DNA from: Corallococcus sp.
Lineage (GTDB): Bacteria > Bacillota > Clostridia > Christensenellales > CAG-314
Length of the DNA stretch: 64,000 nt
Assembly: GCA_023667435.1 (NCBI GenBank)
Contig: JAMPAB010000003.1
Span: forward strand, 3,176-67,175
Direction of reading: 5' to 3'
In this document: positions 7,274-37,673 of the stretch, one piece after another
Position numbering within the stretch: position 1 is the stretch's first letter
Layout of the letters: each line of letters starts with the position of its first letter
Notes under the pieces: model-generated
What the model saw: the letters and a program-made list of their open reading frames with translations, nothing else
Told to the model about the DNA's origin: nothing
Databases searched by the model: none
Program-made: the position numbers and the translations under genes

Positions 7274-8980
7274 TTAAGGATTGTAGTTATTTATATTGTC
7301 CGTAAGCGTCTTCAATTTAGTCTGCATATACGTGGCGTAAGCGACGTTGCCCGTGTTGGTAGCGTCAAACGCCAAATTATTAGTCTTTATCGCCGACGAC
7401 GTATATTGAGCATACTTAGATTTAAAATTGTTCTTGTAATTGTCAAACGTCAACGCCGTCAACGCTTGCGAAGAATTTAACGTCAGCAAATTCTGACGGT
7501 ACAGACTAAGCGCAGATCCGCTGCCTGTGGGAGCGCCTTTATCTATAAGATTTATATACAGCGGGTTCGTTTGTCCGCCGCCCGTTGCCGCAACGGTACG
7601 GGTATACGGCGTAACGTTCATATTTGCGCTTCCTGTAGGATTCCAATCCTTCGTAATTCCCAAACATCTGTCGTAATCGTACGGAATAATTATCGCCCTG
7701 CCGTCGGCGCGGAAATACAAATAATAGTTGTTGTAATTGTTGCGTATACAGTCGGGGTTGCCTAATATGTAATTTACCGCTTCGAATTTTGCAAAATATT
7801 CTACGTCTATAAGTTTGGAATAATCGGCGTTCGACTTATTGAGAGCGGTGATAAAATTTTTAACGGAAGACAAATCGCGCAATCCCGTCGTTGCGTTTTT
7901 CTTTTTATTCGTCTTTTTATCGTAGCTGTAAAACTCTCCTTTCAACTCGTCCTCGACGCCTACGCGTTTGTCTAATTCGTTTGTCGTCAAATCGGCAGGT
8001 CCCGTTGTCGTATACGTACATTTCCACAAATCTCCGACTTTCGCCTCTCCGATGTTTCTGGTAACGAATACCTCGTCTATCGGTTCGTATATTCTGTATA
8101 CGCCTAAGTTTTTCTTCGTTTTATTTTTTTCCAGCGCCGTTAACGAACAAAGCGTAACGTTCGGCGCGTATATGCCGTTGTCGCGAAAAAGCTTCATAGC
8201 ATAAAGCTCGCGTACGTAAGTTTCGTCGGCGGTAGAATTATACTTGATATCTATTTTTTCCATTCCGCCGAGCGTTCTGTTTTTGCGCGCGGCGCGTTCG
8301 GACGCGTTAGACCAAACTTTTAACTCATCTTGCGTATAACCGTCGCTTACATCGTCAAACGTCTGCTTGAAAGACAGTTTCATATGTATATTGTTTGTAA
8401 ATCCGCCGTTCGAATAAAATGCGTGACGCGAAGTATTGCCTTTCATACGAACGCCGACTTCTTCGTAATAATAATTCAACCAACCGTTACCGTCGTCTAT
8501 TCCTATAATAACGCTGTTCGCCATTCGGTATATGGGAGATTTGCCGCCTTTGCTTAAAAAATCGATATAGTCCTGATTCAGTTTTTTCCACTCGGCGTCG
8601 GACATATCTATATCTATCGCAACCGTAGAATTTTCACTGAACAGCGCTTCGTAAACTTTATTTTCGCTTCCGGAAACGTACCTTGCGGTAAACGTTTTAT
8701 TTTGCGCGTAACTTTTCGAAGAATCGAATTTTTCGTCGCCGTAAAACCAACCGCTAAACGCATATCCGTCTCGATGAGGTTCTTCGCTCACCTGTACTTT
8801 TCCGTTTTCCTCGTAAGGATGCGCCGTCAACGTTGTCCCTCCGTCGGAAAAAACTCCTTCTCCCGACAAAAAAGTTATTACGACGTTCTCGTTCACGGGA
8901 GGATTCGCTTCGATCAGTCCGCAAGCCGCAAGCGATACGAGCATTATTGCTAGCAAGATGATTATCGCCGTTTTTTTCAT
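7274..8980 (-). CDS. CotH-family (spore-coat kinase-like) lipoprotein
   Basis: 568-aa ORF with a signal peptide and lipobox (LSLAAC), a GYAFSGWFYGDEKF repeat, and the CotH-like NNYYLYF..IIPYDYDRCLG motif. Confidence 0.7.
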   Translation of the reverse strand: MKKTAIIILLAIMLVSLAACGLIEANPPVNENVVITFLSGEGVFSDGGTTLTAHPYEENGKVQVSEEPHRDGYAFSGWFYGDEKFDSSKSYAQNKTFTARYVSGSENKVYEALFSENSTVAIDIDMSDAEWKKLNQDYIDFLSKGGKSPIYRMANSVIIGIDDGNGWLNYYYEEVGVRMKGNTSRHAFYSNGGFTNNIHMKLSFKQTFDDVSDGYTQDELKVWSNASERAARKNRTLGGMEKIDIKYNSTADETYVRELYAMKLFRDNGIYAPNVTLCSLTALEKNKTKKNLGVYRIYEPIDEVFVTRNIGEAKVGDLWKCTYTTTGPADLTTNELDKRVGVEDELKGEFYSYDKKTNKKKNATTGLRDLSSVKNFITALNKSNADYSKLIDVEYFAKFEAVNYILGNPDCIRNNYNNYYLYFRADGRAIIIPYDYDRCLGITKDWNPTGSANMNVTPYTRTVAATGGGQTNPLYINLIDKGAPTGSGSALSLYRQNLLTLNSSQALTALTFDNYKNNFKSKYAQYTSSAIKTNNLAFDATNTGNVAYATYMQTKLKTLTDNINNYNP

Positions 8981-12270: not shown

Positions 12271-12299
12271 TTGACAATTTAAAAGTTTGATTATATAAT
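12271..12299 (+). promoter_or_regulatory. Consensus sigma-70 promoter TTGACA-17-TATAAT
   Basis: TTGACA at 12271-12276, exact 17-nt spacer, TATAAT at 12294-12299. It points toward the modules and deoD, about 460 nt upstream of the deoD ATG. Confidence 0.65.
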
Positions 12300-12403
12300 T
12301 GATTCGGATACAGACTGCTCTCGACAGACTTAAATATTTCGGACAAGTAAATTTTATCGCCGTTTGCAGTATCTGTCATTCGATAATAGCATAAAAACAA
12401 TAA

Positions 12404-12509
12404 TTAACGACGTTTAATTACCATTAACTGCCGTTAACTACTTGCTATTACATCGTACACGCAATAGAGCAATTGTTATTGAAATATTCCGTTCGTGTAC
12501 GATATAATA
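12404..12509 (+). repeat. Module A1: four 10-bp-phased TTAAC/TTAAT hexamers plus hairpin
   Basis: Hexamers start at 12404, 12414, 12424 and 12434. Arms ATCGTACACG (12452-61) and CGTGTACGAT (12494-503), 32-nt loop, tail ATAATA. Confidence 0.7.
12479..12508 (+). promoter_or_regulatory. Promoter-like TTGAAA-18-TATAAT embedded in the A1 hairpin
   Basis: TTGAAA at 12479-84 and TATAAT at 12503-08. A predicted start would lie just upstream of the A2 TAACGACGT. Confidence 0.45.
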
Positions 12510-12523
12510 CAATACAACGACTA

Positions 12524-12629
12524 TTAACGACGTCTAACTACGTCTATCTGCTGCTAACTACTATTATACAACACATCACGTTGATAATAATATTTTGCAA
12601 TAAATGTTGCTCGTGTGTGTTATATAATA
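12524..12629 (+). repeat. Module A2: five 10-bp-phased YTAAC-like hexamers plus hairpin
   Basis: Hexamers at 12524, 12534, 12544, 12554 and 12564. Arms TATTATACAACACATCACG (12562-80) and CGTGTGTGTTATATAATA (12612-29), with a 31-nt loop. Offset from A1 is exactly 120 bp. Confidence 0.7.
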
Positions 12630-12735
12630 TAAACAAAAAACATTCGATTTACAATCAACAGAAATATCCATCGAATGGGAGTTATTATAAGTCAAAGTCA
12701 AAGTCAAATAAATATCATTCGATGATATAATATAA
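12620..12735. repeat. IR-bounded cassette, orientation 1 (upstream of deoD)
   Basis: Bounded by TTATATAATAT (12620-30) and ATATAATATAA (12725-35). Contains CATTCGAT(G) sites at 12641(+), 12669(-) and 12716(+), plus (GTCAAA)x3 at 12691-12708. Confidence 0.55.
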
Positions 12736-12761: not shown

Positions 12762-13466
12762 ATGCCGATTCCTACTCCGCACATTTCTGCAAAAAAAGGC
12801 GACTTCGCCGAAACCGTTCTTATGCCGGGAGATCCTCTCCGCGCAAAATACATAGCGGAACATTACCTTACAAACCCCGTGCTGGTCAACAACGTACGCG
12901 GAGTACACGGGTACACGGGTACGTACAAAGGCAAGCGCGTTTCCGTTATGGCGAGCGGAATGGGTATTCCTTCCATAGGTATTTACAGTTACGAATTGTA
13001 TAACTTCTACGACGTAGAAAATATAATTAGAATAGGTTCGGCAGGCGCTATGCAGCCGTACGTAAAACTCAGAAGTCTTGTTTTCGGACAAGGTGCCTGC
13101 ACTAACAGCAACTACGCAGACCAGTTCGGAATGCCGGGAACGTTGGCTCCCATTGCCAGTTACGAATTGCTGGAAAAAGCGGTTGCGGTTGCCAAACAAA
13201 AAGGATTGGATTATACCGTAGGCAACATTCTGTCTTCCGATACTTTTTACGACGACGGAGCAGGTTCGGCGGTATGGAACAAAATGGGCGTACTTGCGGT
13301 AGAAATGGAGAGCGCGGCGCTCTATCTCAACGCGTCGCGAGTCGGCAAAAAGGCGCTGTGCATTTGCACGATTTCCGACCACCTTCTAACGGGCGAAGAA
13401 CTCTCTTCGGAGGAACGCCAAAACTCTTTCCACGAAATGATGGAACTCGCGTTGGAAATTGCGTAA
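12762..13466 (+). CDS. deoD: Purine nucleoside phosphorylase DeoD type
   Basis: 234-aa ORF: MPIPTPHISAKKGDFAETVLMPGDPLRAKYIAE.., ..AVEMESAALY... AAGGAG is upstream. Confidence 0.9.
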   Translation: MPIPTPHISAKKGDFAETVLMPGDPLRAKYIAEHYLTNPVLVNNVRGVHGYTGTYKGKRVSVMASGMGIPSIGIYSYELYNFYDVENIIRIGSAGAMQPYVKLRSLVFGQGACTNSNYADQFGMPGTLAPIASYELLEKAVAVAKQKGLDYTVGNILSSDTFYDDGAGSAVWNKMGVLAVEMESAALYLNASRVGKKALCICTISDHLLTGEELSSEERQNSFHEMMELALEIA

Positions 13467-13548
13467 ACTCCAAAGTTTGCAATCGAACGTTTAGTCGCGA
13501 CAAAACCCGTTCCGTAATAAGTTAATTTAAACTTCCGTTATACAGAAT

Positions 13549-13585
13549 ACAACAACAGACCGCCGTTTCTCGGCGGTCTGTTGTT
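13549..13585 (+). terminator. Long perfect hairpin after deoD (terminator-like)
   Basis: 16-bp perfect stem CAACAACAGACCGCCG / CGGCGGTCTGTTGTTG with a 5-nt loop. The T-tract is weak (TTGTAAAA). Confidence 0.55.
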
Positions 13586-13615
13586 GTTGTAAAATAATAC
13601 TTGTTGTTTTCAATC

Positions 13616-13650
13616 GTACAAGTAACGCGTTTTAACGCGGTTACCTGTAC
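13616..13650. repeat. 35-nt palindromic intergenic element, copy 2
   Basis: GTACAAGTAACGCGTTTTAACGCGGTTACCTGTAC, between convergent deoD and pepV. Confidence 0.65.
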
Positions 13651-13655
13651 GTTAA

Positions 13656-14987
13656 CTATTTTGCGAGCCGATAGATTGCTTCCATATATAATTCCGTCAT
13701 GAGTTTAAGATTGTTTAAATCGATACACTCGTTCGGCATATGAATGGTCTGCTCCTCATTCGGAAAAAGGGGGCCGAACGCGACGCAGTTGGACAGACAC
13801 CTGCTGTAAGTGCCTCCGCCTATAGCGATAGGTTCGACGTTGACGTTCATCAGCGAATTGTAAACTTGCATAAGGGTCGTTACAAGCTCGCTGTCGGCAG
13901 GTACGTATAAAGGATTGCTTATGTGCCAAGAATTAAAACTGAATTCGGCAGGGATATGCTCGCGTAAAAGCTTCGTCATGTAATCGCAATCGTACGAAAC
14001 GGGGAATCGTATATCCACCGTCGCAGTAAGCGTTCCGTCGTCGGCAGTGCGTAATACGCCCAAATTGCAGGTAAGATTTCCGCTTTGTTCGTCACTGAGC
14101 GCAATGCCCCAGCTTTTGCCTGTGGAATCGCACAGACACTCCGCCAAAAACCGCAGCGCTTTGCACTCGGGATAAATATCCGCAAGCAAACGTAATACGG
14201 GGTAAGTAGCGTTAATTCCTTCGTCGGGCGTGCTTGCGTGAGCGGCCTTGCCCGTCGCCGTTATTTCCGTTTGTCCGTTTGCAGTAGTCGCAGTCACGTC
14301 TTTTGCGGAAATTTCGACGTTTTTCGCTATAATCGCCTTGCATAACGACGGAACTACGTTAGCTCTGTCGCCTGCCGTAACTGATACGCCTTTTGGCAGC
14401 TTTCCTAAATTTATATCGAAATGATATATTCCCTTTTCTCTGTTTATAACGGGGAAGTCTCCGTCGGGCGAAAACGACACGTCGGGACGGGGCATTGTTT
14501 TAAAGTAATGCTTCACGCAACCCATATCCGTTTCTTCGTCGCAGCCGAATATAAGACGTACCGTTTTCGAGGGAGCAAACCCCGCGTCTTTAAGACACTT
14601 GACGGCAAATAAACAAGCTATCATAGGTCCCTTATCGTCCATCGTTCCGCGTCCGTACATTTTGCCGCAATGAATTTCTCCTCCGTAAGGCGGATACTGC
14701 CATTCGGCAGGATTTGCGGGTACCACGTCGAGGTGTCCAAGTATTCCGACCGTCTCCTTTCCCGTTCCGACAAAGTCAACGTGCCCTGCGTAACCTTCGT
14801 CGTTATATGTAGTCAAACCGAAACTTTCTGCAACGGAAAGTACGTAGTCCAAGCACGCTCTAACCTCTTTGCCGAAAGGAGCGCCTTTTGACGCCTCGCC
14901 TTTTTCCGTTTTGTAAGTTATTACCTTTTGCAGCGTTTCTACAAGGTTATCGAATTGTTCGTTCAATATTATTTTCGCATCTTTCAT
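13656..14987 (-). CDS. pepV: M20-family dipeptidase (PepV/Sapep-like)
   Basis: ORF with GILGHLDVVPA and MDDKGP motifs. Start placed at MKDAKII.., preceded by GTGAGG. Confidence 0.75.
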   Translation of the reverse strand: MKDAKIILNEQFDNLVETLQKVITYKTEKGEASKGAPFGKEVRACLDYVLSVAESFGLTTYNDEGYAGHVDFVGTGKETVGILGHLDVVPANPAEWQYPPYGGEIHCGKMYGRGTMDDKGPMIACLFAVKCLKDAGFAPSKTVRLIFGCDEETDMGCVKHYFKTMPRPDVSFSPDGDFPVINREKGIYHFDINLGKLPKGVSVTAGDRANVVPSLCKAIIAKNVEISAKDVTATTANGQTEITATGKAAHASTPDEGINATYPVLRLLADIYPECKALRFLAECLCDSTGKSWGIALSDEQSGNLTCNLGVLRTADDGTLTATVDIRFPVSYDCDYMTKLLREHIPAEFSFNSWHISNPLYVPADSELVTTLMQVYNSLMNVNVEPIAIGGGTYSRCLSNCVAFGPLFPNEEQTIHMPNECIDLNNLKLMTELYMEAIYRLAK

Positions 14988-15076
14988 AATAAACCTCACT
15001 TTTTGTACTAATAGTATACACAAATTTCGTTTATTGTGCTATTATATTTGTACTAAATTACTAAAAAAGGTTATTT

Positions 15077-15787
15077 ATGGCTGGCGTCAACGACGGACAT
15101 CGAAACAGACTTCGCGAACGAATGATAAACGAAGGTTTAAGCGGATTTCAAGATCACGAGATTTTGGAACTTCTGCTATTTCAATATTTACCCAGACAGG
15201 ATACGAACAAGTTGGCGCATCGGCTTATCGAACGGTTCGGCAGTTTCGGCAACGTTCTCAACGCTTCGCCCGAACAGCTAATGTCGGTACAAGGCGTATC
15301 GAAAGTAACCGCGTGCAACCTTGCCATGCTTAAAGAAGTTTGGCGTCGTTACAAAGCGGAGGAAACGAACAGAATAACGTTAGATAAGCTTACGTCCATA
15401 CTGCAATACTCCCGCGCCTTAGTTGCGGAAAGTTACGTCGAACGTATGGTAGTTGTTTACGTTGACGGAGGTACGAATTTTCTTTTCCGCGAGGAGTTCG
15501 ATTCGTCTGACGCGCAAACGGTCGTTATCGACCCGAAGAAAATCGTATTTTCCGCAGTGCGCGTAAACGCAAGCGGAATAATTTTATTTCACTGTCACAC
15601 GCAAGGAAATTGCAAACCCAGCGCGCAAGACGTATCGTTTACCGAAAGGTTAATCTTTTCGCTTGCGGGATTGGACGTGGTAGTTATGGAACACATTATA
15701 TTCAACGCTCGGGGAGAATATTTCAGTTTTTATCGCGAAGGTTTGATAGACGAAATCGCTTCCAAATTCAAAAAGACTATAAACTAA
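15077..15787 (+). CDS. radC: RadC-family JAB-domain protein
   Basis: 236-aa ORF: HRNRLRERM..., ..ELLLFQYLPRQDTNKLAHRLIERFGS, and a C-terminal HCHTQG (JAMM-like) region. Confidence 0.8.
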   Translation: MAGVNDGHRNRLRERMINEGLSGFQDHEILELLLFQYLPRQDTNKLAHRLIERFGSFGNVLNASPEQLMSVQGVSKVTACNLAMLKEVWRRYKAEETNRITLDKLTSILQYSRALVAESYVERMVVVYVDGGTNFLFREEFDSSDAQTVVIDPKKIVFSAVRVNASGIILFHCHTQGNCKPSAQDVSFTERLIFSLAGLDVVVMEHIIFNARGEYFSFYREGLIDEIASKFKKTIN

Positions 15788-15806
15788 TTGCAAGAGGTCA
15801 ATACAT

Positions 15807-17240
15807 ATGTCTCAATTACGAACAAGATTTGCTCCCAGTCCCACAGGATATTTACACATAGGCGGTTTAAGAACCGCTTTATATTCCTTCTTATACGCAA
15901 GAAAAAACAACGGTAAATTTATTCTGCGTATCGAAGACACCGATCAGGGCAGATACGTTGACGGCGCGGTGGAATTGATTTACCGCACGCTGCGCGATAC
16001 CGGCATAATGTACGACGAAGGTCCCGACGTCGGCGGCGACTACGGCCCGTACATACAAAGCGAACGCAAAAACGAATACTTATATTATGCGCAAAAATTG
16101 GTGGAAAGCGGACATGCGTATTACTGTTTTTGCTCGGAAGAACGTTTAGCGTCTCTCCCCGACATAAACGGCGCAAGACGTTACGACAAACACTGCCTGC
16201 ATTTAGATAAGGAAGAAGTTAAACGGCGCATAGCTAACGGAGAAAAATACGTAATTCGTCAAAATATGCCCACTTCGGGCAACAGCACATATCACGACGT
16301 CGTTTACGGAGACATAACGATAGAAAACAGCGAACTCGAAGATCAAATTCTGATCAAATCGGACGGTATGCCTACGTATAATTTCGCCAACGTAATCGAC
16401 GACCATTTGATGGGAATCAACTGCGTTATGCGCGGAATAGAGTATCTTTCCAGCACGCCCAAGTATAATCTGCTGTACGATGCGTTCGGGTGGGAACGTC
16501 CTACGTATATTCATATGCCCCCGATAATGAAAGACGCGCAGCACAAACTTTCCAAACGAAACGGAGACGCCAGTTACGAAGATTTAATCGGCAAAGGTTA
16601 TCTTAAAGAAGCCATAATAAATTACATTGCTTTGCTCGGTTGGTCTCCGAAAGACGACAGCGAAAAAATGAGTTTCGAAGAACTGCAACAAAAATTCGAC
16701 GTTTCGGGCATCAATAAAAGTCCGTCTATATTCGACCCGATGAAGCTCGCCTGGCTCAATTCGCTGTACATAAAAGAAATGTCTCCCGAAGCGTTTGCCG
16801 ACTACGCGGCTAAATGGCTGGATAAATGCTACTTGAAAAATTTCAACAAACAACTCGTGTGCAAGCTTATTCAAAGCCGTATCGAAACCTTCGCGGAAAT
16901 CGAGGACAAACTGCGCTTCCTTGCGGAATTCGGACCGTTCGATTCGGAACTGTACGTCAATCAAAAGCAGAAAGCGGACGCCGAGTTGGCGCGCAATACG
17001 TTGCCGCTGATAAGCAAGAAGTTTGACGAATTAAAGACGTGGGACAATCAAAGTCTGTTTGACGCGCTTGTAAAACTGTCGGAAGAAAGCGGTTGCAAAA
17101 AAGGCGCGATTTTGTGGATTGCGCGTATCGCATTGACTGGGCTTGCGGTAACTCCGGGAGGAGCAAGCGAGATCGCGGAAATTCTCGGCAAACAAGAGAC
17201 CTTGCGCAGATTACGGTTTTCCGCCGAACAACTTGGTTGA
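15807..17240 (+). CDS. gltX: Glutamate--tRNA ligase
   Basis: 477-aa ORF: RTRFAPSPTGYLHIGGLRTAL (HIGH region) and KLSKRNG (KMSKS). Confidence 0.9.
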   Translation: MSQLRTRFAPSPTGYLHIGGLRTALYSFLYARKNNGKFILRIEDTDQGRYVDGAVELIYRTLRDTGIMYDEGPDVGGDYGPYIQSERKNEYLYYAQKLVESGHAYYCFCSEERLASLPDINGARRYDKHCLHLDKEEVKRRIANGEKYVIRQNMPTSGNSTYHDVVYGDITIENSELEDQILIKSDGMPTYNFANVIDDHLMGINCVMRGIEYLSSTPKYNLLYDAFGWERPTYIHMPPIMKDAQHKLSKRNGDASYEDLIGKGYLKEAIINYIALLGWSPKDDSEKMSFEELQQKFDVSGINKSPSIFDPMKLAWLNSLYIKEMSPEAFADYAAKWLDKCYLKNFNKQLVCKLIQSRIETFAEIEDKLRFLAEFGPFDSELYVNQKQKADAELARNTLPLISKKFDELKTWDNQSLFDALVKLSEESGCKKGAILWIARIALTGLAVTPGGASEIAEILGKQETLRRLRFSAEQLG

Positions 17241-17470
17241 AATATACGTTCAGACAGAATAATCGCCTTCAAACGAACGACTGTTCGTCAAAACCGCCTC
17301 GCACGTACCGCAAATACTATGATTGAGCGATACCGACAGTGAGCGTAAACCACCGTACGTATCAGCGGCTAAACGCAATATAAGTATAGCGCGCTATACC
17401 TTGCAAGCAGGCAAGTGCGCTTTTGCCTTACTTTCCGGTTTCGTTTCTATATAATAAAATACAACAGCTA

Positions 17471-17576
17471 CTAACGACGTTTAACTGATATTAACTACTG
17501 CCAACTGCTATTATACAACACATCACGTTGAATATAGTGTATTGCAGAAAATGTTGCACGTGTGCGTTATATAATA
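17471..17576 (+). repeat. Module B: five 10-bp-phased YTAAC hexamers plus hairpin, upstream of the TIR gene
   Basis: Hexamers at 17471, 17481, 17491, 17501 and 17511. Arms at 17509-27 and 17559-76 are near-identical to A2, with a 31-nt loop. Preceded by TATAATAAAATACAAC, as at the A1/A2 junction. Confidence 0.7.
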
Positions 17577-17676
17577 TCATCGAATGTTAAATTATCAATT
17601 CAAAGTACGAATAACTCACATTCGATGGATATTTCTATTAATTGCAAGTTGATTGTTTTTCGATTATATTATATAG
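17567..17676. repeat. IR-bounded cassette, orientation 2 (inverted relative to 12620-12735)
   Basis: Bounded by TTATATAATAT (17567-77) and ATATTATATAG (17666-76). The reverse complement of 17611-17656 matches 12651-12685 (blocks of 9/9, 18/18 and 7/7 nt) apart from an 11-nt insert. Confidence 0.55.
17642..17670 (+). promoter_or_regulatory. Promoter-like TTGCAA-17-TATATT facing the TIR gene
   Basis: The -35 hexamer (17642-47) lies in the 11-nt insert inside the cassette. The -10 hexamer (17665-70) lies at the right inverted repeat. Confidence 0.45.
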
Positions 17677-17711
17677 CAGAATGGTAAACAGTAATTTCAC
17701 GGAGGATAATT

Positions 17712-18572
17712 ATGAAGGCTTATAATGGCTTGTACCCTTACGCATTTATGTCGTATTCACATAAAGATGAAGATCGAATCGCGCCTCTAATAGACAAATT
17801 ACAAAGTGTCGGTTGTAATATTTGGTATGATGAAGGAATTTTACCCGCAGACGAATGGGCAGAGACTGTTGCAAAAAAACTCTCCGGCGCAACGCTTTTC
17901 TTTTTGATATTATCCGCTAATTCTATTGCTTCACAAAATGTCAAAAGAGAAATATATTATGCTGTTTCAAACAATATTCCGATATTAACTTTTTATTTGG
18001 AGAATGTTGAGCTATCTCAGGGGTTAAACATGCAACTTGGAATTTCTCAATCAATTCATACAAAAAACGACGTGGACATCGATTATGATAAAATAAAAAA
18101 TATTTTTCCAAAAGATATAATAACCGACGATGTTTTTGACATTATTCACAGCACGCCGAAGTTCGTATATGCCTTTTCACAAAAACAAGCATTAAACGAA
18201 TATTCCATTATTCAAATCGATAGAGAAACAAGACAACGTAAAATTTTATTTTTACATAAAGATAGCGCGGCATTCATCGCCGACTACAGATGTGAATCTT
18301 TGCATATATCTCCGAGTAATGAATTTAATTCCAATCAGGAGACAACGTTATTTTTCTCTATATATAGTGATTTAGATCACGATGCGGGAGTGCCGGCATC
18401 CGACCTTTATGTTCAGTCTGATTTTGCTATTACAAACCCAAACTCAAATGAGGCAATTTTACATATTCTCGGCGGTAGAATGAAGCAAAAAAATGATTCG
18501 TATGTAAATACTGAAGTTTTTTCGAATTCAGAATCAGTTTACTGGTTGAAAAATTATGTTGACGATGAGTGA
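17712..18572 (+). CDS. TIR-domain protein with an uncharacterised C-terminal domain
   Basis: 286-aa ORF: YAFMSYSHKDE..IWYDEG..LFFLILSANSIASQNVKREIYYA (TIR_2-like) over roughly the first 120 aa. The rest is not recognisable. GGAGG is upstream and the region is visibly AT-rich. Confidence 0.75.
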   Translation: MKAYNGLYPYAFMSYSHKDEDRIAPLIDKLQSVGCNIWYDEGILPADEWAETVAKKLSGATLFFLILSANSIASQNVKREIYYAVSNNIPILTFYLENVELSQGLNMQLGISQSIHTKNDVDIDYDKIKNIFPKDIITDDVFDIIHSTPKFVYAFSQKQALNEYSIIQIDRETRQRKILFLHKDSAAFIADYRCESLHISPSNEFNSNQETTLFFSIYSDLDHDAGVPASDLYVQSDFAITNPNSNEAILHILGGRMKQKNDSYVNTEVFSNSESVYWLKNYVDDE

Positions 18573-18860
18573 TATATAGATTATCTTTCGCCAAAAACAG
18601 ATACTGATATAGATAAACTGCAATTTATTGCGCAACTGTAAAAAAGCGGAGAATTAGGAATTTTTCGCTTTTTTTATATTTCCTATGGGAAGCGCGCTTT
18701 TAACTAATTTCTTTTTCATTCTCCCGAAGCGTACGGAGTTGCTGCCTTTAGCAATTCAATTTGTTTTTTTGCTCGCATGCTTCGGTATGCCGTCCATGCT
18801 CGGTTTAGCGAAACGCTGAAACTCATCTAAAAAGAAATTTGCGCTTGCCGTGTTCAGTAT

Positions 18861-18889
18861 TTGACACGACCGATAAGTAGTTGTATAAT
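18861..18889 (+). promoter_or_regulatory. Consensus promoter TTGACA-17-TATAAT upstream of the GtrA-like gene
   Basis: TTGACA at 18861-66, 17-nt spacer, TATAAT at 18884-89. Confidence 0.6.
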
Positions 18890-18930
18890 TTCGTTAATTT
18901 ATATTTCTAAAACGAACGGAGTTTGACGCT

Positions 18931-19533
18931 ATGGAGAATACCTCTCAAAAAAAGAAAATAAGCAAGAAAGAAATAATACGGGCTGTCAAATTTACGCTGT
19001 TTTCGATATCGGCAGGCGCGATACAAATGATTTCGTCTCTGCTGTTGCGTCTTGTTATACTTGAAAAATTCATTCCTGCCGACGCAACGATATTTTACAT
19101 TACGGAACTAAACGAAAATACGTTTATCGCCGACACGATAGGTTTGGCCCTTTCTATACTTTGGAACTTTACGTTCAACCGCAAGTTTACGTTTAAAGCG
19201 GCAAACAACGTACCCGTTGCGATGCTGCTGGCTTTCGTATTCTATATACCTTTCTACCATTTTCAGATATGGTACGTAGACGCCGTCGAAAAGAGTCTTG
19301 CAAGCATAGGCGACTGGGGATTCGTAATCGCTTTGGGAACCTGCATGATAATAAACTTCGTTTTGGAATTCCTTTGGCAAAACTTCGTTGTATTTCGCGG
19401 AGCAGTCGACACGAATAAACTTGCAAAAAAGGAACGGGAACGCGAAGCGGCAGTTTCGTCAAACGACGTTTCGGATACGCAGGAAATAACGGACGGTAAC
19501 GTTACTGATATAGAAAATTCGGCGAAAAAATAA
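18931..19533 (+). CDS. GtrA-family membrane protein
   Basis: 200-aa ORF with four predicted TM segments, the LSILWNFTFNRKFTFK motif and an acidic C-terminal tail. Confidence 0.7.
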   Translation: MENTSQKKKISKKEIIRAVKFTLFSISAGAIQMISSLLLRLVILEKFIPADATIFYITELNENTFIADTIGLALSILWNFTFNRKFTFKAANNVPVAMLLAFVFYIPFYHFQIWYVDAVEKSLASIGDWGFVIALGTCMIINFVLEFLWQNFVVFRGAVDTNKLAKKEREREAAVSSNDVSDTQEITDGNVTDIENSAKK

Positions 19534-19748
19534 TTACAATCGGGATTAGTTATGATGTAATTTGCAAACCGAAACGTCATTGAGGCGGTTTAGTAATGCG
19601 GATGCGGCAATCAAAATATTTTGCGGCCTGCGCGGCAAATGTGTGTTTTCTCATAGTTTGACAGTTCGCTACGTTCTCGCGCATATGCGGCATCGCGCGG
19701 CTAAACTTTCGCCATACGTTTCGAGGTTTTACTTTCTTTGACATGAAG

Positions 19749-21068: not shown

Positions 21069-21144
21069 CGAGGTGTAGCGCAGTTGGTAGCGCGCTTGGT
21101 TCGGGACCAAGAGGCCATGGGTTCGAATCCCGTCACTTCGACCA
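21069..21144 (+). tRNA. tRNA-Pro (anticodon CGG), CCA encoded
   Basis: Manual cloverleaf: acceptor CGAGGTG/CACTTCG, D arm GCGC..GCGC, anticodon stem CTTGG/CCAAG with loop TTCGGGA, T arm ATGGG-TTCGAAT-CCCGT, then A-CCA. Confidence 0.9.
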
Positions 21145-21669: not shown

Positions 21670-21903
21670 ATGCAGAAGCGCGGAGAATGGTCGCCGCGTC
21701 AGAAAAAAATTGCCGAAACTATTCCTACGGTTAAAGGGTTGCCGTGCGGATCGCATAAGTTGATTTTCCAAGTTTACTATCTGGAAAAAGGCGACTGCGC
21801 CAAGCCATTCAATGACGCTATGAAAGAACATATCGACGGTAAGTTAAACGAATTCGTAAAAAAATTGAGAGAAACGTTAATCGAAATCAATAATTTACAA
21901 TGA
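21670..21903 (+). CDS. Hypothetical small protein in the island
   Basis: 77-aa ORF with no recognisable motif and a weak RBS. It abuts the next ORF. Confidence 0.3.
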   Translation: MQKRGEWSPRQKKIAETIPTVKGLPCGSHKLIFQVYYLEKGDCAKPFNDAMKEHIDGKLNEFVKKLRETLIEINNLQ

Positions 21904-21968
21904 TAGTTAACTATGCATCGGAAAAAAACAACAATGAAATAAATAATATTTATCAAACAGGAGACTGT

Positions 21969-23145
21969 ATGAACAAACAAGAACAACTGAATTACTTAAA
22001 AAACTCGTTAATGTATCAAATGTCGCTGGGTTCGAAGGAGTTGTACCATTCCAACGTTTGGGCGTGGCTTTTGGAAAAAGACCGCGAATACATAAAGGCA
22101 TTTTTCAATATCGATTTAACCGAGTTTGACAATAAATTCGAAGTCCGTCGCGAGCTTGCCCATCGAGATATTACGATATGGCTGCACAAGAAGGGATATC
22201 CCGATAATCAAGGGAAATGCTATCTAGTAATAGAAAACAAAATCAAGTCTTTGCCGACGAAAGAGCAATTGCAAGATTATACCGAAGATCTTGGGAATAA
22301 CGAATTGTTTGCTGCGACATATACGGGAATACGAAGCGTATTGAATTCCGAAGATAGAATTTGCAAAAACAAACGAGGTCATTACGTGGAATTTCCGTTC
22401 TTACAAAGATATTGCGGAAAGTATTGTAAAAATTACAAATGACAGTGACATTTCTGCAATAAAAGAACACAAGTCTCAAATTTTGGAGTATTGCCATATT
22501 GTTCAAGCGCTTAACGATTTGTTGGAATCGTCGTTGGATGATACAAAAAATATTTTGTCTTACAAAACGATGGAGAATTTAGAAGATGAGCGTATTCGTA
22601 TAGGTGACGTGTTTAAAAAATTAAAAGGCGCAGACTTTTTGGCGTATGTGCGAAAACGGAAAAATGAGTTGGATCAACTATGTCCTAAGTCTGAAGGATA
22701 TCGTCTGGCTATATGGCAAAGTTACAATAATAAACATGCGACTTTGGATATAAAGTTCTCTAATTGGACCGAAAATTGTTCGTCGTATTTTGACATAGGC
22801 ATACAGATTGAAGAATCGCAATATAGGCGTATGGCGTTGATTGACGGACAAACCGCGCGCAATCTTAATTCCGACAAGCCTGCCGAAACCTTTTTTGATT
22901 CGCTTGCCGACATTTGGTTTGACAAAAATTTCGAACCCAAACTAAAAGACCGCGTAATTTGGGACAAATCCACTAAATTAAAAAAGAAATTCGATTCGTA
23001 TACCACAGGACAATATTGTTTTATTTATCAGTATTGCAACATAGAAGAACAAAATAACAACATGCGTTACGAAGATTTATTCAATTGCCTTAAGGAAGAC
23101 CTAAAGAAAGCGAAAGAAATAATTGAAAAACGTGCTTTTAATTAA
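21969..23145 (+). pseudogene. PD-(D/E)xK nuclease-like gene split by a frameshift
   Basis: N-terminal part reads MNKQEQ..YHSNVWAWLLEK..HRDITIW..YLVIENKIKS (D..E-x-K). The reading frame switches near the A-runs at 22345-22385, and the continuation ..WNFRSYKDIAESIV.. is open from 22345 to 23145. AGGAGA precedes the ATG at 21969. Confidence 0.55.
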
Positions 23146-28963: not shown

Positions 28964-30328
28964 TTAACGATTATAAATCTTATCCCTTATATCCTTAACC
29001 TGAGACGCAGTCCTGTCGTTATTTTTACACTCTTCGCTTATTTTATCGCGCGCGTGCATAACGGTGGTGTGATCGCGACCGCCGAAATATTCGCCGATAG
29101 ATACGAGAGGAATGCTTTGCCCTAAAATGTCGCAAATAAGATATATACATATCTGACGCGGAACTACGATTTCCTTATTCTTTTTCTTGCCTATAATATC
29201 CTCGCGCTTTACGTTAAAATATTCGCAAGTCGATTTTACTATACGGTCTATCGTAATTATATCGTTAGTTGCGTCGGCATAATCGCGCAAAGCGTCGCAA
29301 ACTATATCCATATTGTTGGGATCTCCGCCGACGAGAGTGGAATAGCTTATTATTCTGTTAAGCATTCCTTCCATTTCTCTTATGTTGTTGGTTATCTTTT
29401 CGGCGATAAGACTCAAAACGTCGATTGTCAAATTATATCCTTTTGCGCCGCATTTTTTCTGAAGAATAGCTATCCTCGTTTCCAAATCGGGCGGTTGAAT
29501 ATCCGCAATAACGCCTGTTGCGAAACGCGTTTTTAACCTTTCCTCTATTTTAATTTCTTTGGGAGGGCGGTCGCTGCTGAGAATAATTTGTTTGTCCGCA
29601 AGATACAGTTCGTTAAAAGTATGGAACATTTCTTCCTGCGTTCCTTCCTTGTTTGCAAGAAACTGCACGTCGTCCATCATAAGTACGTCTACTTTGCGAT
29701 ACTTACTGCGGAAATTTTTCATCGCGTTCGGATTTGTAGTATCGTGAAGCGATTCTATAAATTCGTTTACAAACTGGTCGCAAGTGACGTACATAATTTT
29801 CTTATTGGGAAAATTGCGTTGGAGAGAATTGCCTATCGCGTGCATCAGGTGCGTTTTCCCCAGTCCTACGCCTCCCCACAAAAATACGGGATTGTATTTA
29901 GTAGCGGAGTTTTCCGCAACGGTCCTGGCTACGGCCTCTGCGTATTCGTTGCTTTTGCCTACGACGAACGTGTCGAACGTATACTGCGATACAAATACCG
30001 CCTTGTCCTCCACGATAGAAACATAATTGCTGCTTACGGGCAAATCTACTTCTTTTTGAACGTTGCCTACGTTTTCCAAATCGTCTTCCGTTATTATTTC
30101 TATATCTATAATCGACGGAAATACAAGGTTGGCGCACTTCTTTATCGTATCTTTGTAGTTGTTGTCTACGATATTCTTCAAGGCGCGCGTTTCGGCGAGC
30201 AGAATAAGTCTGTCGCGGTAAATGCCTACCGGTTGCAGTTGGTTTATGTATAGGTCGTACTGCAACGTCGAAACTTTAGCTTCCGTTTCCAATAAGATAT
30301 TGTTCCATATTTGATTTATTTTAAGCAT
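28964..30328 (-). CDS. dnaA: Chromosomal replication initiator DnaA
   Basis: Walker A LWGGVGLGKTHL, box VII/sensor regions, and C-terminal ..GGRDHTTVMHA. Start set at MLKINQIW (Trp at residue 8, as is usual). The track ORF begins 6 codons earlier at a GTG. Confidence 0.9.
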   Translation of the reverse strand: MLKINQIWNNILLETEAKVSTLQYDLYINQLQPVGIYRDRLILLAETRALKNIVDNNYKDTIKKCANLVFPSIIDIEIITEDDLENVGNVQKEVDLPVSSNYVSIVEDKAVFVSQYTFDTFVVGKSNEYAEAVARTVAENSATKYNPVFLWGGVGLGKTHLMHAIGNSLQRNFPNKKIMYVTCDQFVNEFIESLHDTTNPNAMKNFRSKYRKVDVLMMDDVQFLANKEGTQEEMFHTFNELYLADKQIILSSDRPPKEIKIEERLKTRFATGVIADIQPPDLETRIAILQKKCGAKGYNLTIDVLSLIAEKITNNIREMEGMLNRIISYSTLVGGDPNNMDIVCDALRDYADATNDIITIDRIVKSTCEYFNVKREDIIGKKKNKEIVVPRQICIYLICDILGQSIPLVSIGEYFGGRDHTTVMHARDKISEECKNNDRTASQVKDIRDKIYNR

Positions 30329-30656
30329 AGTGATAACATTATACACTTTTTAAGTTTATTTTGCAACAATACGGCAACGCAACTTTACTTTCGAAGCAAA
30401 TAATTTGCGCAAAAAACGCAATGAAATTTTTACGAATTATATTAAAAACTGTTTATAAATTTTACTTTGAGGCAACACTTAGCCATATAGCATCCGAACA
30501 TACAAATTCGCCTGCGGAATAGAATTCGCGTCATTGCGTTTCAACGGCGTATTTGACGGTTTAAGCAACGGAATGTAACGGGAACGCCGAATATATCGCG
30601 TTGCGGAAAAAGCGGCGTTCGAACGCTATAGTTAACTCAAAAAGGAGACAATGTAT

Positions 30657-31461: not shown

Positions 31462-32568
31462 TCAGACTATTTGCTTTACGGGCAAAATAAAGTAGAGCAC
31501 TTCGTCGCTGTCGTAAATAGTTATAACGCAGCTGTTGTGTTGCGCAAATTCCATTTTGATGGTTTCGGCGCTTATAACCTTTAAGCAATCGTTAATATAG
31601 CGAGAGTTATACGCGCATCTGACGTCCTTACCGGAAAGAGATATCGTAACGTTTTCCTTCGCCGTTCCGTATTGACTTGTGGAAGAGATATTCATATTGT
31701 ATTCTTCTATATTCAACACTACAAGATTATTCTTTTCGCTGCGCGACATTATAGACGCCGTGTTAAGCGCTTTTTCGAACGTCTCCTTGTTTACCACCAA
31801 CGTGGATAAGAAATCTTTCGGAACTATATTGTCGTACTTAATATACTGTCCGCCCAGCAATCTGGTGTATAATTTAGTATTTTCCATAGCAACCGTAAGA
31901 TAGTTGTTTTCGATGAATACTTTAAGTACGTTGTCGCTATCCGTAAGCAATTTCGACAATTCCGACAGACTTCTGGACGGAATTGTGGCGGAAATATAAT
32001 CAACCTTTTCTTCGAGAGCCTTTTTGCTCATTGCAAAACGGTAACCGTCGGTAGCTACGGCAGACAATGTGTATTCCCTCGCCTCGAAGTGTACGCCTTT
32101 AAGCATAGGTCTGCTGTCGTCGGTAGCTACGGCGAATATTACGTTGGTAATTATATCTTTAAGGTTGATTTCCTGAACGGCGAAGTAATTGGCGCCGTTT
32201 ATATTTTCCGTTTCGGGATAATCGGAAACGTCCAAAGTGCTTATGGTACACTCGCTGTTTGCCGAGCTGATAAACAGTCTGTTGTCGTCCGTTATTTCTA
32301 ACGAGATATCGCTTCCGTTATCGGCAATATTTCGGATATATTCTCCGAATATTCTTCCCGGCACAAGCATCGCTCCGCCGACGATAACGTTTGCGTCGAT
32401 CGTTTTTTCTATTGCAAGGTCTTTATCCGTAGCGTAAAGCGTCAATCTGTCATTCTCTGCGGACATCTTGATACATTCCAAAACGGGCGCCACGTCGCGG
32501 CTGGGCAACGCTTTCGAGACTTTTGCTATGGCATCGTTTAAATCGAGACTGTTTACAATGATTTTCAT
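31462..32568 (-). CDS. dnaN: DNA polymerase III beta sliding clamp
   Basis: 368-aa ORF with the typical MKIIVNSLDLNDAIAKVSKALPSR.. N-terminus and a three-domain length. AAGGAG is upstream. Confidence 0.9.
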   Translation of the reverse strand: MKIIVNSLDLNDAIAKVSKALPSRDVAPVLECIKMSAENDRLTLYATDKDLAIEKTIDANVIVGGAMLVPGRIFGEYIRNIADNGSDISLEITDDNRLFISSANSECTISTLDVSDYPETENINGANYFAVQEINLKDIITNVIFAVATDDSRPMLKGVHFEAREYTLSAVATDGYRFAMSKKALEEKVDYISATIPSRSLSELSKLLTDSDNVLKVFIENNYLTVAMENTKLYTRLLGGQYIKYDNIVPKDFLSTLVVNKETFEKALNTASIMSRSEKNNLVVLNIEEYNMNISSTSQYGTAKENVTISLSGKDVRCAYNSRYINDCLKVISAETIKMEFAQHNSCVITIYDSDEVLYFILPVKQIV

Positions 32569-32660
32569 AAGCAACTCCTTCTATAAGCTTTTCGTGTTTG
32601 ATTTTTTCTTTTGCGTTTACAAGTAATACTCTTTCTTTTGGTAGTAGTGTTATTAGACGT

Positions 32661-37551: not shown

Positions 37552-37580
37552 TTGAAATTGCGTTAAAATTAGGATATAAT
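37552..37580 (+). promoter_or_regulatory. Promoter TTGAAA-17-TATAAT immediately upstream of module D
   Basis: TTGAAA at 37552-57, 17-nt spacer, TATAAT at 37575-80. TAACGACGT begins 7 nt later. Confidence 0.6.
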
Positions 37581-37585
37581 AAAAT

Positions 37586-37673
37586 ATAACGACGTATAAC
37601 TGCCGTTGTACAACGCGTCACGGCGACAAACTGTATGCGAACGCAGCGGCCGGCTTTCCTGCGCGTAGTATAA
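37586..37673 (+). repeat. Module D: shortened copy (two phased repeats plus hairpin) in the leader of the SDR gene
   Basis: ATAACG 37586, ATAACT 37596, TTGTAC 37606 (10-bp phase). Arms TTGTACAACGCG (37606-17) and CGCGTAGTATAA (37662-73) give 12 pairs with one G-T and one mismatch. Confidence 0.5.

Follow-up and report, generated by a model that had tools for sequence, protein, structure and literature searches.

The question raised by this locus is whether two short, repeat-bounded cassettes that lie in opposite orientations in front of different genes record an inversion of DNA and, if so, whether inversion is historical or still under way. Both cassettes occur in the window, by which we mean the whole 64-kb stretch of DNA that was analysed. 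The window is a replication-origin neighbourhood with parB-parA, mnmE, mnmG, rsmG, jag-yidC-yidD-rnpA-rpmH, dnaA, dnaN and gerA-type germination genes, and its cumulative GC-skew minimum is at ~28-30 kb. Locus A corresponds to the intergenic DNA between rpmH and deoD, where cassette A (12620-12735) is followed by a deoD-like purine nucleoside phosphorylase gene (12762-13466, +; Pfam PNP_UDP_1, E 2.3e-36). Locus B is flanked by a terminator-like hairpin that follows gltX and by a gene for a TIR-domain protein (17712-18572, +; Pfam TIR_2, E 4.3e-15), which is 3' of cassette B (17567-17676). Gene order at the origin was unusual in that dnaN (31462-32574, -) was found upstream of dnaA (28964-30346, -) with an opposite-strand rubrerythrin gene between them and in that rpmH-rnpA was ~17 kb from dnaA; no parS sites were found within 2 mismatches. 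Other features noted in the window included a hairpin with a perfect 17-bp stem and a 5-nt loop (13549-13587), probably a bidirectional terminator, where the deoD and M20 peptidase genes converge, and a tRNA-Pro(CGG) gene (21069-21144) with a gene of the PD-(D/E)XK nuclease family and ORFs without a Pfam match after it (21900-22442), a region that may be a small integrated element.

Alignment of the two cassettes revealed reverse-complement homology over their full length (79%, 87/110 ungapped columns), with a global alignment score of 114 for the reverse complement of cassette A against cassette B as opposed to 43 for the direct alignment. In a repeat search, this homology appeared as an ungapped 69-nt inverted arm pair (12618-12686 / 17610-17678, 86%) and a second inverted pair (12713-12735 / 17567-17589, 91%), which jointly span the entire cassette. 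The reverse-complement relation claimed in a preliminary description of this DNA was thereby confirmed over a greater length than had been claimed, while the 11-nt insert that the description placed in B proved needless because the 69-nt pair aligns without a gap. The strings quoted in that description were all found where it had placed them, including the common left repeat TTATATAATAT, which is exact at 12620-30 and 17567-77. The 18-mer CATTCGATGGATATTTCT was present in one copy per strand, and CATTCGATG occurred four times, at 12669 (-), 12716 (+), 17578 (-) and 17619 (+), compared with 0.58 occurrences expected; a further site previously listed at 12641 reads CATTCGATT and matches CATTCGATG at merely 8/9 positions. 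In contrast with the cassettes, the upstream modules form a direct repeat (12502-12637 vs 17449-17584, 81%), in agreement with the earlier statement that the flanking modules are co-oriented and that the cassette alone is flipped. Both cassettes begin at an identical position in the module, after ...GTTATATAATA, and homology between the loci stops exactly at the right box, beyond which the DNA is unrelated. An inverted-repeat-bounded segment of ~115 bp is flipped between two paralogous loci with the orientation of the adjacent module unchanged, and the cassette pair is a real footprint of DNA inversion.

Differences in the order of parts within each cassette were consistent with this footprint. 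Thus, cassette A is arranged as box-S-H-box, with left box TTATATAATAT (12620-30), a segment S of ~38 nt (12631-68), a hairpin H (12669-12724, stems 12669-86 / 12707-24) and right box ATATAATATAA (12725-35), whereas cassette B, which is inverted with respect to A, is arranged as box-H-S'-box, with left box at 17567-77, H at 17578-17627, S' at ~17628-17663 and right box at 17664-76. Segment S therefore precedes the hairpin at A, whereas at B it follows the hairpin and is reverse-complemented. The stems of H are 9-18 bp long (CATCGAATG...CATTCGATG), and the stem arm GAGTTATT tracks the inversion (17/18). Against a simple inversion, the loop motif TCAAAGT of H does not change strand between the loci (p ~0.02 for direct and 0.14 for reverse-complement alignment), unlike the prediction of a single inversion, and direct alignment of H by itself (47) scored slightly above alignment of its reverse complement (38). 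The directly oriented loop could be due to chance or to a further inversion, nested within the first, that flipped the loop between the stems of the hairpin, an event type made by template switching at hairpins.

It is scarcely credible that no true inversion is involved and that the match is an artefact of AT-rich low complexity or of a palindromic hairpin that reads alike on both strands. The boxes are indeed AT-only near-palindromes and H aligns in both senses, as such an artefact would have it, but when the boxes were taken out the reverse-complement alignment of the cassette interiors still scored 67, compared with a mean of 17 (sd 2.9, max 35) for 1000 dinucleotide shuffles (z = 17.5). 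This alignment contains a 51-nt block of ~84% identity, and low complexity was excluded on account of its z value. The preliminary description had named a realignment of this kind as the check on low-complexity AT sequence, and the match survived it. The artefact reading was also refuted by the change of side and strand of S and by the whole-cassette scores given above. The cassette was likewise rejected as a structured RNA: its folds were not above those of shuffled sequences (z -0.7 and -1.7), the 16-aa ORF in cassette A has no conserved counterpart in B, and Rfam covariance models gave no match at the gathering threshold and, in E-value mode, returned chance-level miRNA/sRNA hits with E above 0.4.

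The bounding box, TTATAT(A/T)ATATAA, is a near-palindrome, and the left box of the cassette doubles as the 3' arm of the module hairpin. The terminal inverted repeat at B (17568-84 / 17659-75) matches at 16/17 positions with the arms 74 nt apart, whereas that at A (12620-30 / 12725-35) matches at just 10/11 positions, or ~14/18 if bases past the box are counted, and is AT-only and without a 7-nt exact seed. The boxes at A are equally an 11/11 direct repeat of ATATAATATAA (12622-32 and 12725-35, read from the sequence), while those at B match as a direct repeat at 10/11 positions. Compared with a strict inverted pair, the boxes at A differ at the central base, and the result of this difference is a TATAAT that faces deoD.

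The modules next to the cassettes belong to a family of ~120 bp in which four 10-bp-phased YTAAC units are followed by a hairpin with a 3' arm that runs into a ATATAATA (-10-like) box. All copies were co-oriented with the next gene, and each started just past a -10-like box. Locus A contains module A1 of type 1 (12393-12511, +; nhmmer module profile, E 1.6e-19), in which four 10-bp-phased TTAAC units precede a hairpin (12446-61 / 12494-509) that ends in the ATATAATA box and in which a promoter scan indicated TTGAAA-18-TATAAT at 12479-12508. This is followed by module A2 of type 2 (12510-12631, +; nhmmer E 3.6e-32; hairpin 12562-75 / 12616-29), which is the direct match (81%) to module B, also of type 2 (17458-17578, +; nhmmer E 2.1e-33). 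Further nhmmer matches in the window were a copy on the minus strand (1891-1995, E 3e-8), upstream of parA, and an incomplete copy at 37576-37629. A scan of the genome collection with a module 20-mer identified two true loci, both in one related MAG, which hold three more modules (L002, 2226-2454; L003, 283-404, -), and the type-2 modules at these loci occur without a cassette; a match at L001 was rejected as a module locus, as this was a chance coding match. Evidence for the module hairpin as an RNA was suggestive but weak (just -4 kcal/mol by RNAalifold, with 4/10 pairs covarying and some of this covariation separating the module subtypes), and no Rfam match to the modules was found. The view of the cassette as a third, diverged module was rejected, as comparisons with the modules in either orientation gave z values of 1-4 and no orientation-specific homology. 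A sequence just before A1 (TCATTCGATAATAGCATAAAA, 12376-12396) resembles the hairpin end and box of the cassette (12715-12735, 81%) and could represent what is left, in degenerate form, of a further unit boundary.

Each end of the cassette carries one outward-facing promoter-like site, P1 at the H end and P2 at the S end, and the partner gene of these promoter-like sites changes with cassette orientation. At A, P1 (12723-12731, +) is a perfect extended -10, TGaTATAAT, that was read from the sequence as a consensus match only; it faces deoD, 31 nt before the ATG (12762), with a GGAGA ribosome-binding site at 12750-54. At the same locus, P2 (12626-12654, -; TTGTAA-17-TATATT, 9/12 in the promoter scan) is directed leftward, antisense into module A2. 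The opposite arrangement was found at B, where P1 (17571-17598, -; TTGATA-16-TATTAT with an upstream TG, 10/12 with TG in the scan) is directed leftward, antisense into module B, and P2 (17642-17670, +; TTGCAA-17-TATATT, 9/12 in the scan) faces the TIR-domain gene (ATG 17712). The region contained 16 promoter-like sites, a total not above expectation from shuffled sequences (12.6 ± 3.9). A perfect sigma-70 consensus, TTGACA-17-TATAAT, was also noted at 12271-12299, ~460 nt upstream of deoD, while relatives have a similar consensus promoter at a distance of just ~90 nt from the start of deoD (L050). In view of the greater distance in the window, the modules and cassette appear to have been added between an older promoter and the ribosome-binding site.

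One other assembly of the species, L046 (GCA_023664405.1; 98.5-99.3% identical), was found by means of an exact GltX match, whereas similar look-ups of other strains with exact DeoD, ParB, ParA and right-end ORF proteins gave no record. The homologues of GltX were labelled as from 'Clostridia bacterium' or, wrongly, 'Corallococcus sp.' MAGs, and the TIR protein of the sister strain as from 'Firmicutes bacterium'. Locus A of L046 was 100% identical to that of the window over 386 nt. At locus B, one SNP was noted and the orientation of the cassette was the same, but L046 contained two tandem type-2 modules (7654-7895) as opposed to one in the window; identity between module A2 and the second of these modules was 85%. 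Thus, in this comparison of two consensus assemblies, module copy number varied between strains while cassette orientation, which was the same at both loci, did not, so that the strain comparison suggested in the preliminary description showed no difference in orientation.

More distant relatives with GltX 82-87% identical (L047-L055) contained no modules or cassette around gltX, nor was a module or cassette present at deoD in L047-L053, where that gene was also captured. The array is accordingly a lineage-specific addition; what the relatives display is absence of the whole array and not a precise empty site. In the relatives L047-L053, the slot 3' of gltX that holds the TIR-domain gene in the window is variable and contains unrelated 164-aa or 215-aa ORFs without a Pfam match. 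Homologues of the TIR protein (73-79% identity) were found elsewhere in unrelated contexts, one of them adjoining an MmeI-type restriction-modification gene (L062), and no cassette or module was present at these loci. Relative to the order in L047-L053, the block M20 peptidase-radC-gltX-(variable gene)-gtrA-like (~13,500-19,700) is inverted in the window, with breakpoints at deoD/M20 and gtrA-like/mscL. No inverted repeat was found at these breakpoints, and the idea of a ~6-kb gene-order inversion bounded by the two cassettes was rejected, as the breakpoints map to ~13.5 kb and ~19.7 kb and not to the cassettes. No further copy of the cassette was detected in the 64 kb of the window or in ~130 kb of related loci. 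A metagenome scan with the cassette 18-mer returned 42 matches, all due to chance and with no homology past the seed, and exact-core scans of viral contigs likewise gave chance matches only.

The best explanation of these results, although we hold it with slightly less than even confidence, is a historical or fixed inversion in which a unit consisting of module plus cassette was duplicated and the cassette of one copy was later inverted between its terminal repeats. In this reading, the cassette is a ~115-bp element bounded by inverted repeats, with two back-to-back, outward promoter-like sites (P1 next to the hairpin and P2 at the opposite end), and it occupies the end nearest the gene in an array of the ~120-bp modules that this species has in 5' leader and promoter regions. 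In the order of events that we infer, a unit of type-2 module and cassette was copied to the second locus, after which the cassette of one copy would have been inverted between terminal repeats that were ancestrally TATATAATAT[C/A]ATCGAA. Co-duplication is suggested by the similar divergence of module (85%) and cassette (79-86%), by the common junction and by the end of homology at the right box. The unchanged orientation in L046 and the lack of the array in more distant relatives likewise speak for the proposed history. Inversion may have been carried out by a site-specific recombinase or by template switching between the repeats, and if the promoter-like sites function as such, then orientation would set the gene-facing promoter, P1 (TGaTATAAT) for deoD at A and P2 for the TIR gene at B, where P1 would fire back into the module. 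Locus A seems by now to be locked in its role as the promoter of deoD, because its repeats have decayed and the change at the central base of the box provides a perfect -10 for deoD, while locus B, which has kept a 16/17 repeat, could still be a substrate for inversion.

As the cassette is known from two copies and the species from two assemblies, an inversion in the past is not distinguishable from switching that continues, and the footprint is explained about as well by a fixed ancient inversion as by an active inverton; two insertions of a small mobile element are not much worse. That the cassettes belong to an active inverton family, in which a recombinase encoded elsewhere in the genome flips one or both of them, seems unlikely. 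Occurrence of the same repeat at two loci in opposite states is what one invertase acting on several switches would give, the repeat pair at B (16/17, arms separated by 74 nt) is of a size similar to that of switches known from Clostridia, the consensus matches to promoters within the cassette are orientation-dependent and cassette B precedes a TIR gene of the defence type that occupies a variable slot. The outcome under this reading would be phase-variable promoter choice, such as strong as opposed to weak or antisense expression of the TIR-domain gene. Orientation was identical in both strains at both loci, no serine or tyrosine recombinase domain was present among the 50 ORFs of the 64-kb window, and locus A combines a housekeeping gene with degenerate repeats. 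In C. difficile, the flagellar switch is a 154-bp segment with imperfect flanking repeats that is inverted by RecV (PMC7446863), and the repeats of such switches contain the RecV binding pattern AWAGTWNCCNTTW-N6-WAANGGNWACTWT (PMC12282940). A search of the window for this pattern gave zero matches with up to 3 mismatches. Since a single-nucleotide change in each repeat of the flagellar switch largely prevents inversion (PMC12282940), locus A is unlikely to be a live switch. The cassettes resemble the RecV switches of this Clostridial species (flgB, cwpV, cmrRST) in that a short segment of ~100-200 bp with imperfect inverted repeats lies upstream of a gene start, contains what may be orientation-dependent regulatory signals (consensus matches here) and occurs at several loci with one repeat type. 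They differ from RecV switches in the single orientation seen per locus, in the lack of a recombinase or RecV motif in the window, in the ~80% identity of the two loci across the whole interior and not only the repeats, and in the nature of the repeat, an AT-only, -10-like box that also delimits the neighbouring modules. The preliminary description had spoken of an inversion either ancient or still active; the footprint is real and the wording fair, but the results for L046 and for the ORFs of the window lend no support to phase-variable switching. More improbable still is the composite reading of a live bidirectional-promoter switch inside a previously undescribed, box-delimited family of ~120-bp leader/promoter modules, in which a trans-acting invertase would cause the TIR defence gene to alternate between a facing promoter and antisense while tandem amplification and contraction of modules would make copy number a second tuning layer.

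Two independent insertions, in opposite orientations, of a MITE-like non-autonomous element that has outward promoters and terminal inverted repeats of ~17 bp into the AT box that ends type-2 modules would also account for the cassette pair, and we consider this a minority possibility. The cassettes share with bacterial MITEs such as Neisseria Correia elements and MITEAba12 a small size (~100-150 bp), terminal inverted repeats, intergenic location in either orientation, promoter-like ends and AT-rich junctions. Outward-facing promoters have been discussed in the literature on bacterial MITEs, the Correia element being one that carries them. In addition, the boxes on either side of each copy form a near-identical direct repeat (11/11, ATATAATATAA, at A and 10/11 at B) that is a possible target-site duplication, a reading to which the near-palindromic box could equally lend itself, and the type-2 modules without a cassette in L002 and L003 resemble unoccupied sites. 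However, no duplication is unambiguous: if the box is taken as the duplication, the termini of the element shrink to ~6-7 nt, and if the box is taken as the terminal repeat, there is no duplication. Also unlike MITEs, there are two copies only, both at exactly the same position of the host module; additional copies were lacking from the window and the related loci, with chance matches only in metagenome and viral scans; and no IS with matching ends (TATATAATATCATCGAA) was seen. Small inversions between short inverted repeats, formed through hairpins and template switching, are well known from plastid non-coding DNA and from quasi-palindrome mutagenesis. The present inversion resembles such events in that it lies exactly between short inverted repeats and would need no dedicated recombinase, and a second, nested event might also account for the odd orientation of the hairpin loop. 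It differs in scale, as the loops of small inversions are usually a few to tens of bases as opposed to the 74-94 nt found here between repeats of 11-17 nt, and we know of no documented bacterial small inversion with promoter swapping.

Both loci would be flagged by single-genome inverton predictors that rely on inverted repeats and promoters, and the cassette pair is thus a case for caution in the use of such predictions. Even as a fossil, under the favoured reading of a fixed inversion, it would represent a repeat-bounded promoter cassette that was copied, inverted and locked as the promoter of a housekeeping gene. If, on the other hand, locus B still flips, then a TIR-domain (defence-type) gene would be phase-variable in an uncultured gut-type Clostridia lineage, and the architecture of the switch, in which the AT-box repeat is common to tandem leader modules, would be unlike the RecV and Mpi paradigms.
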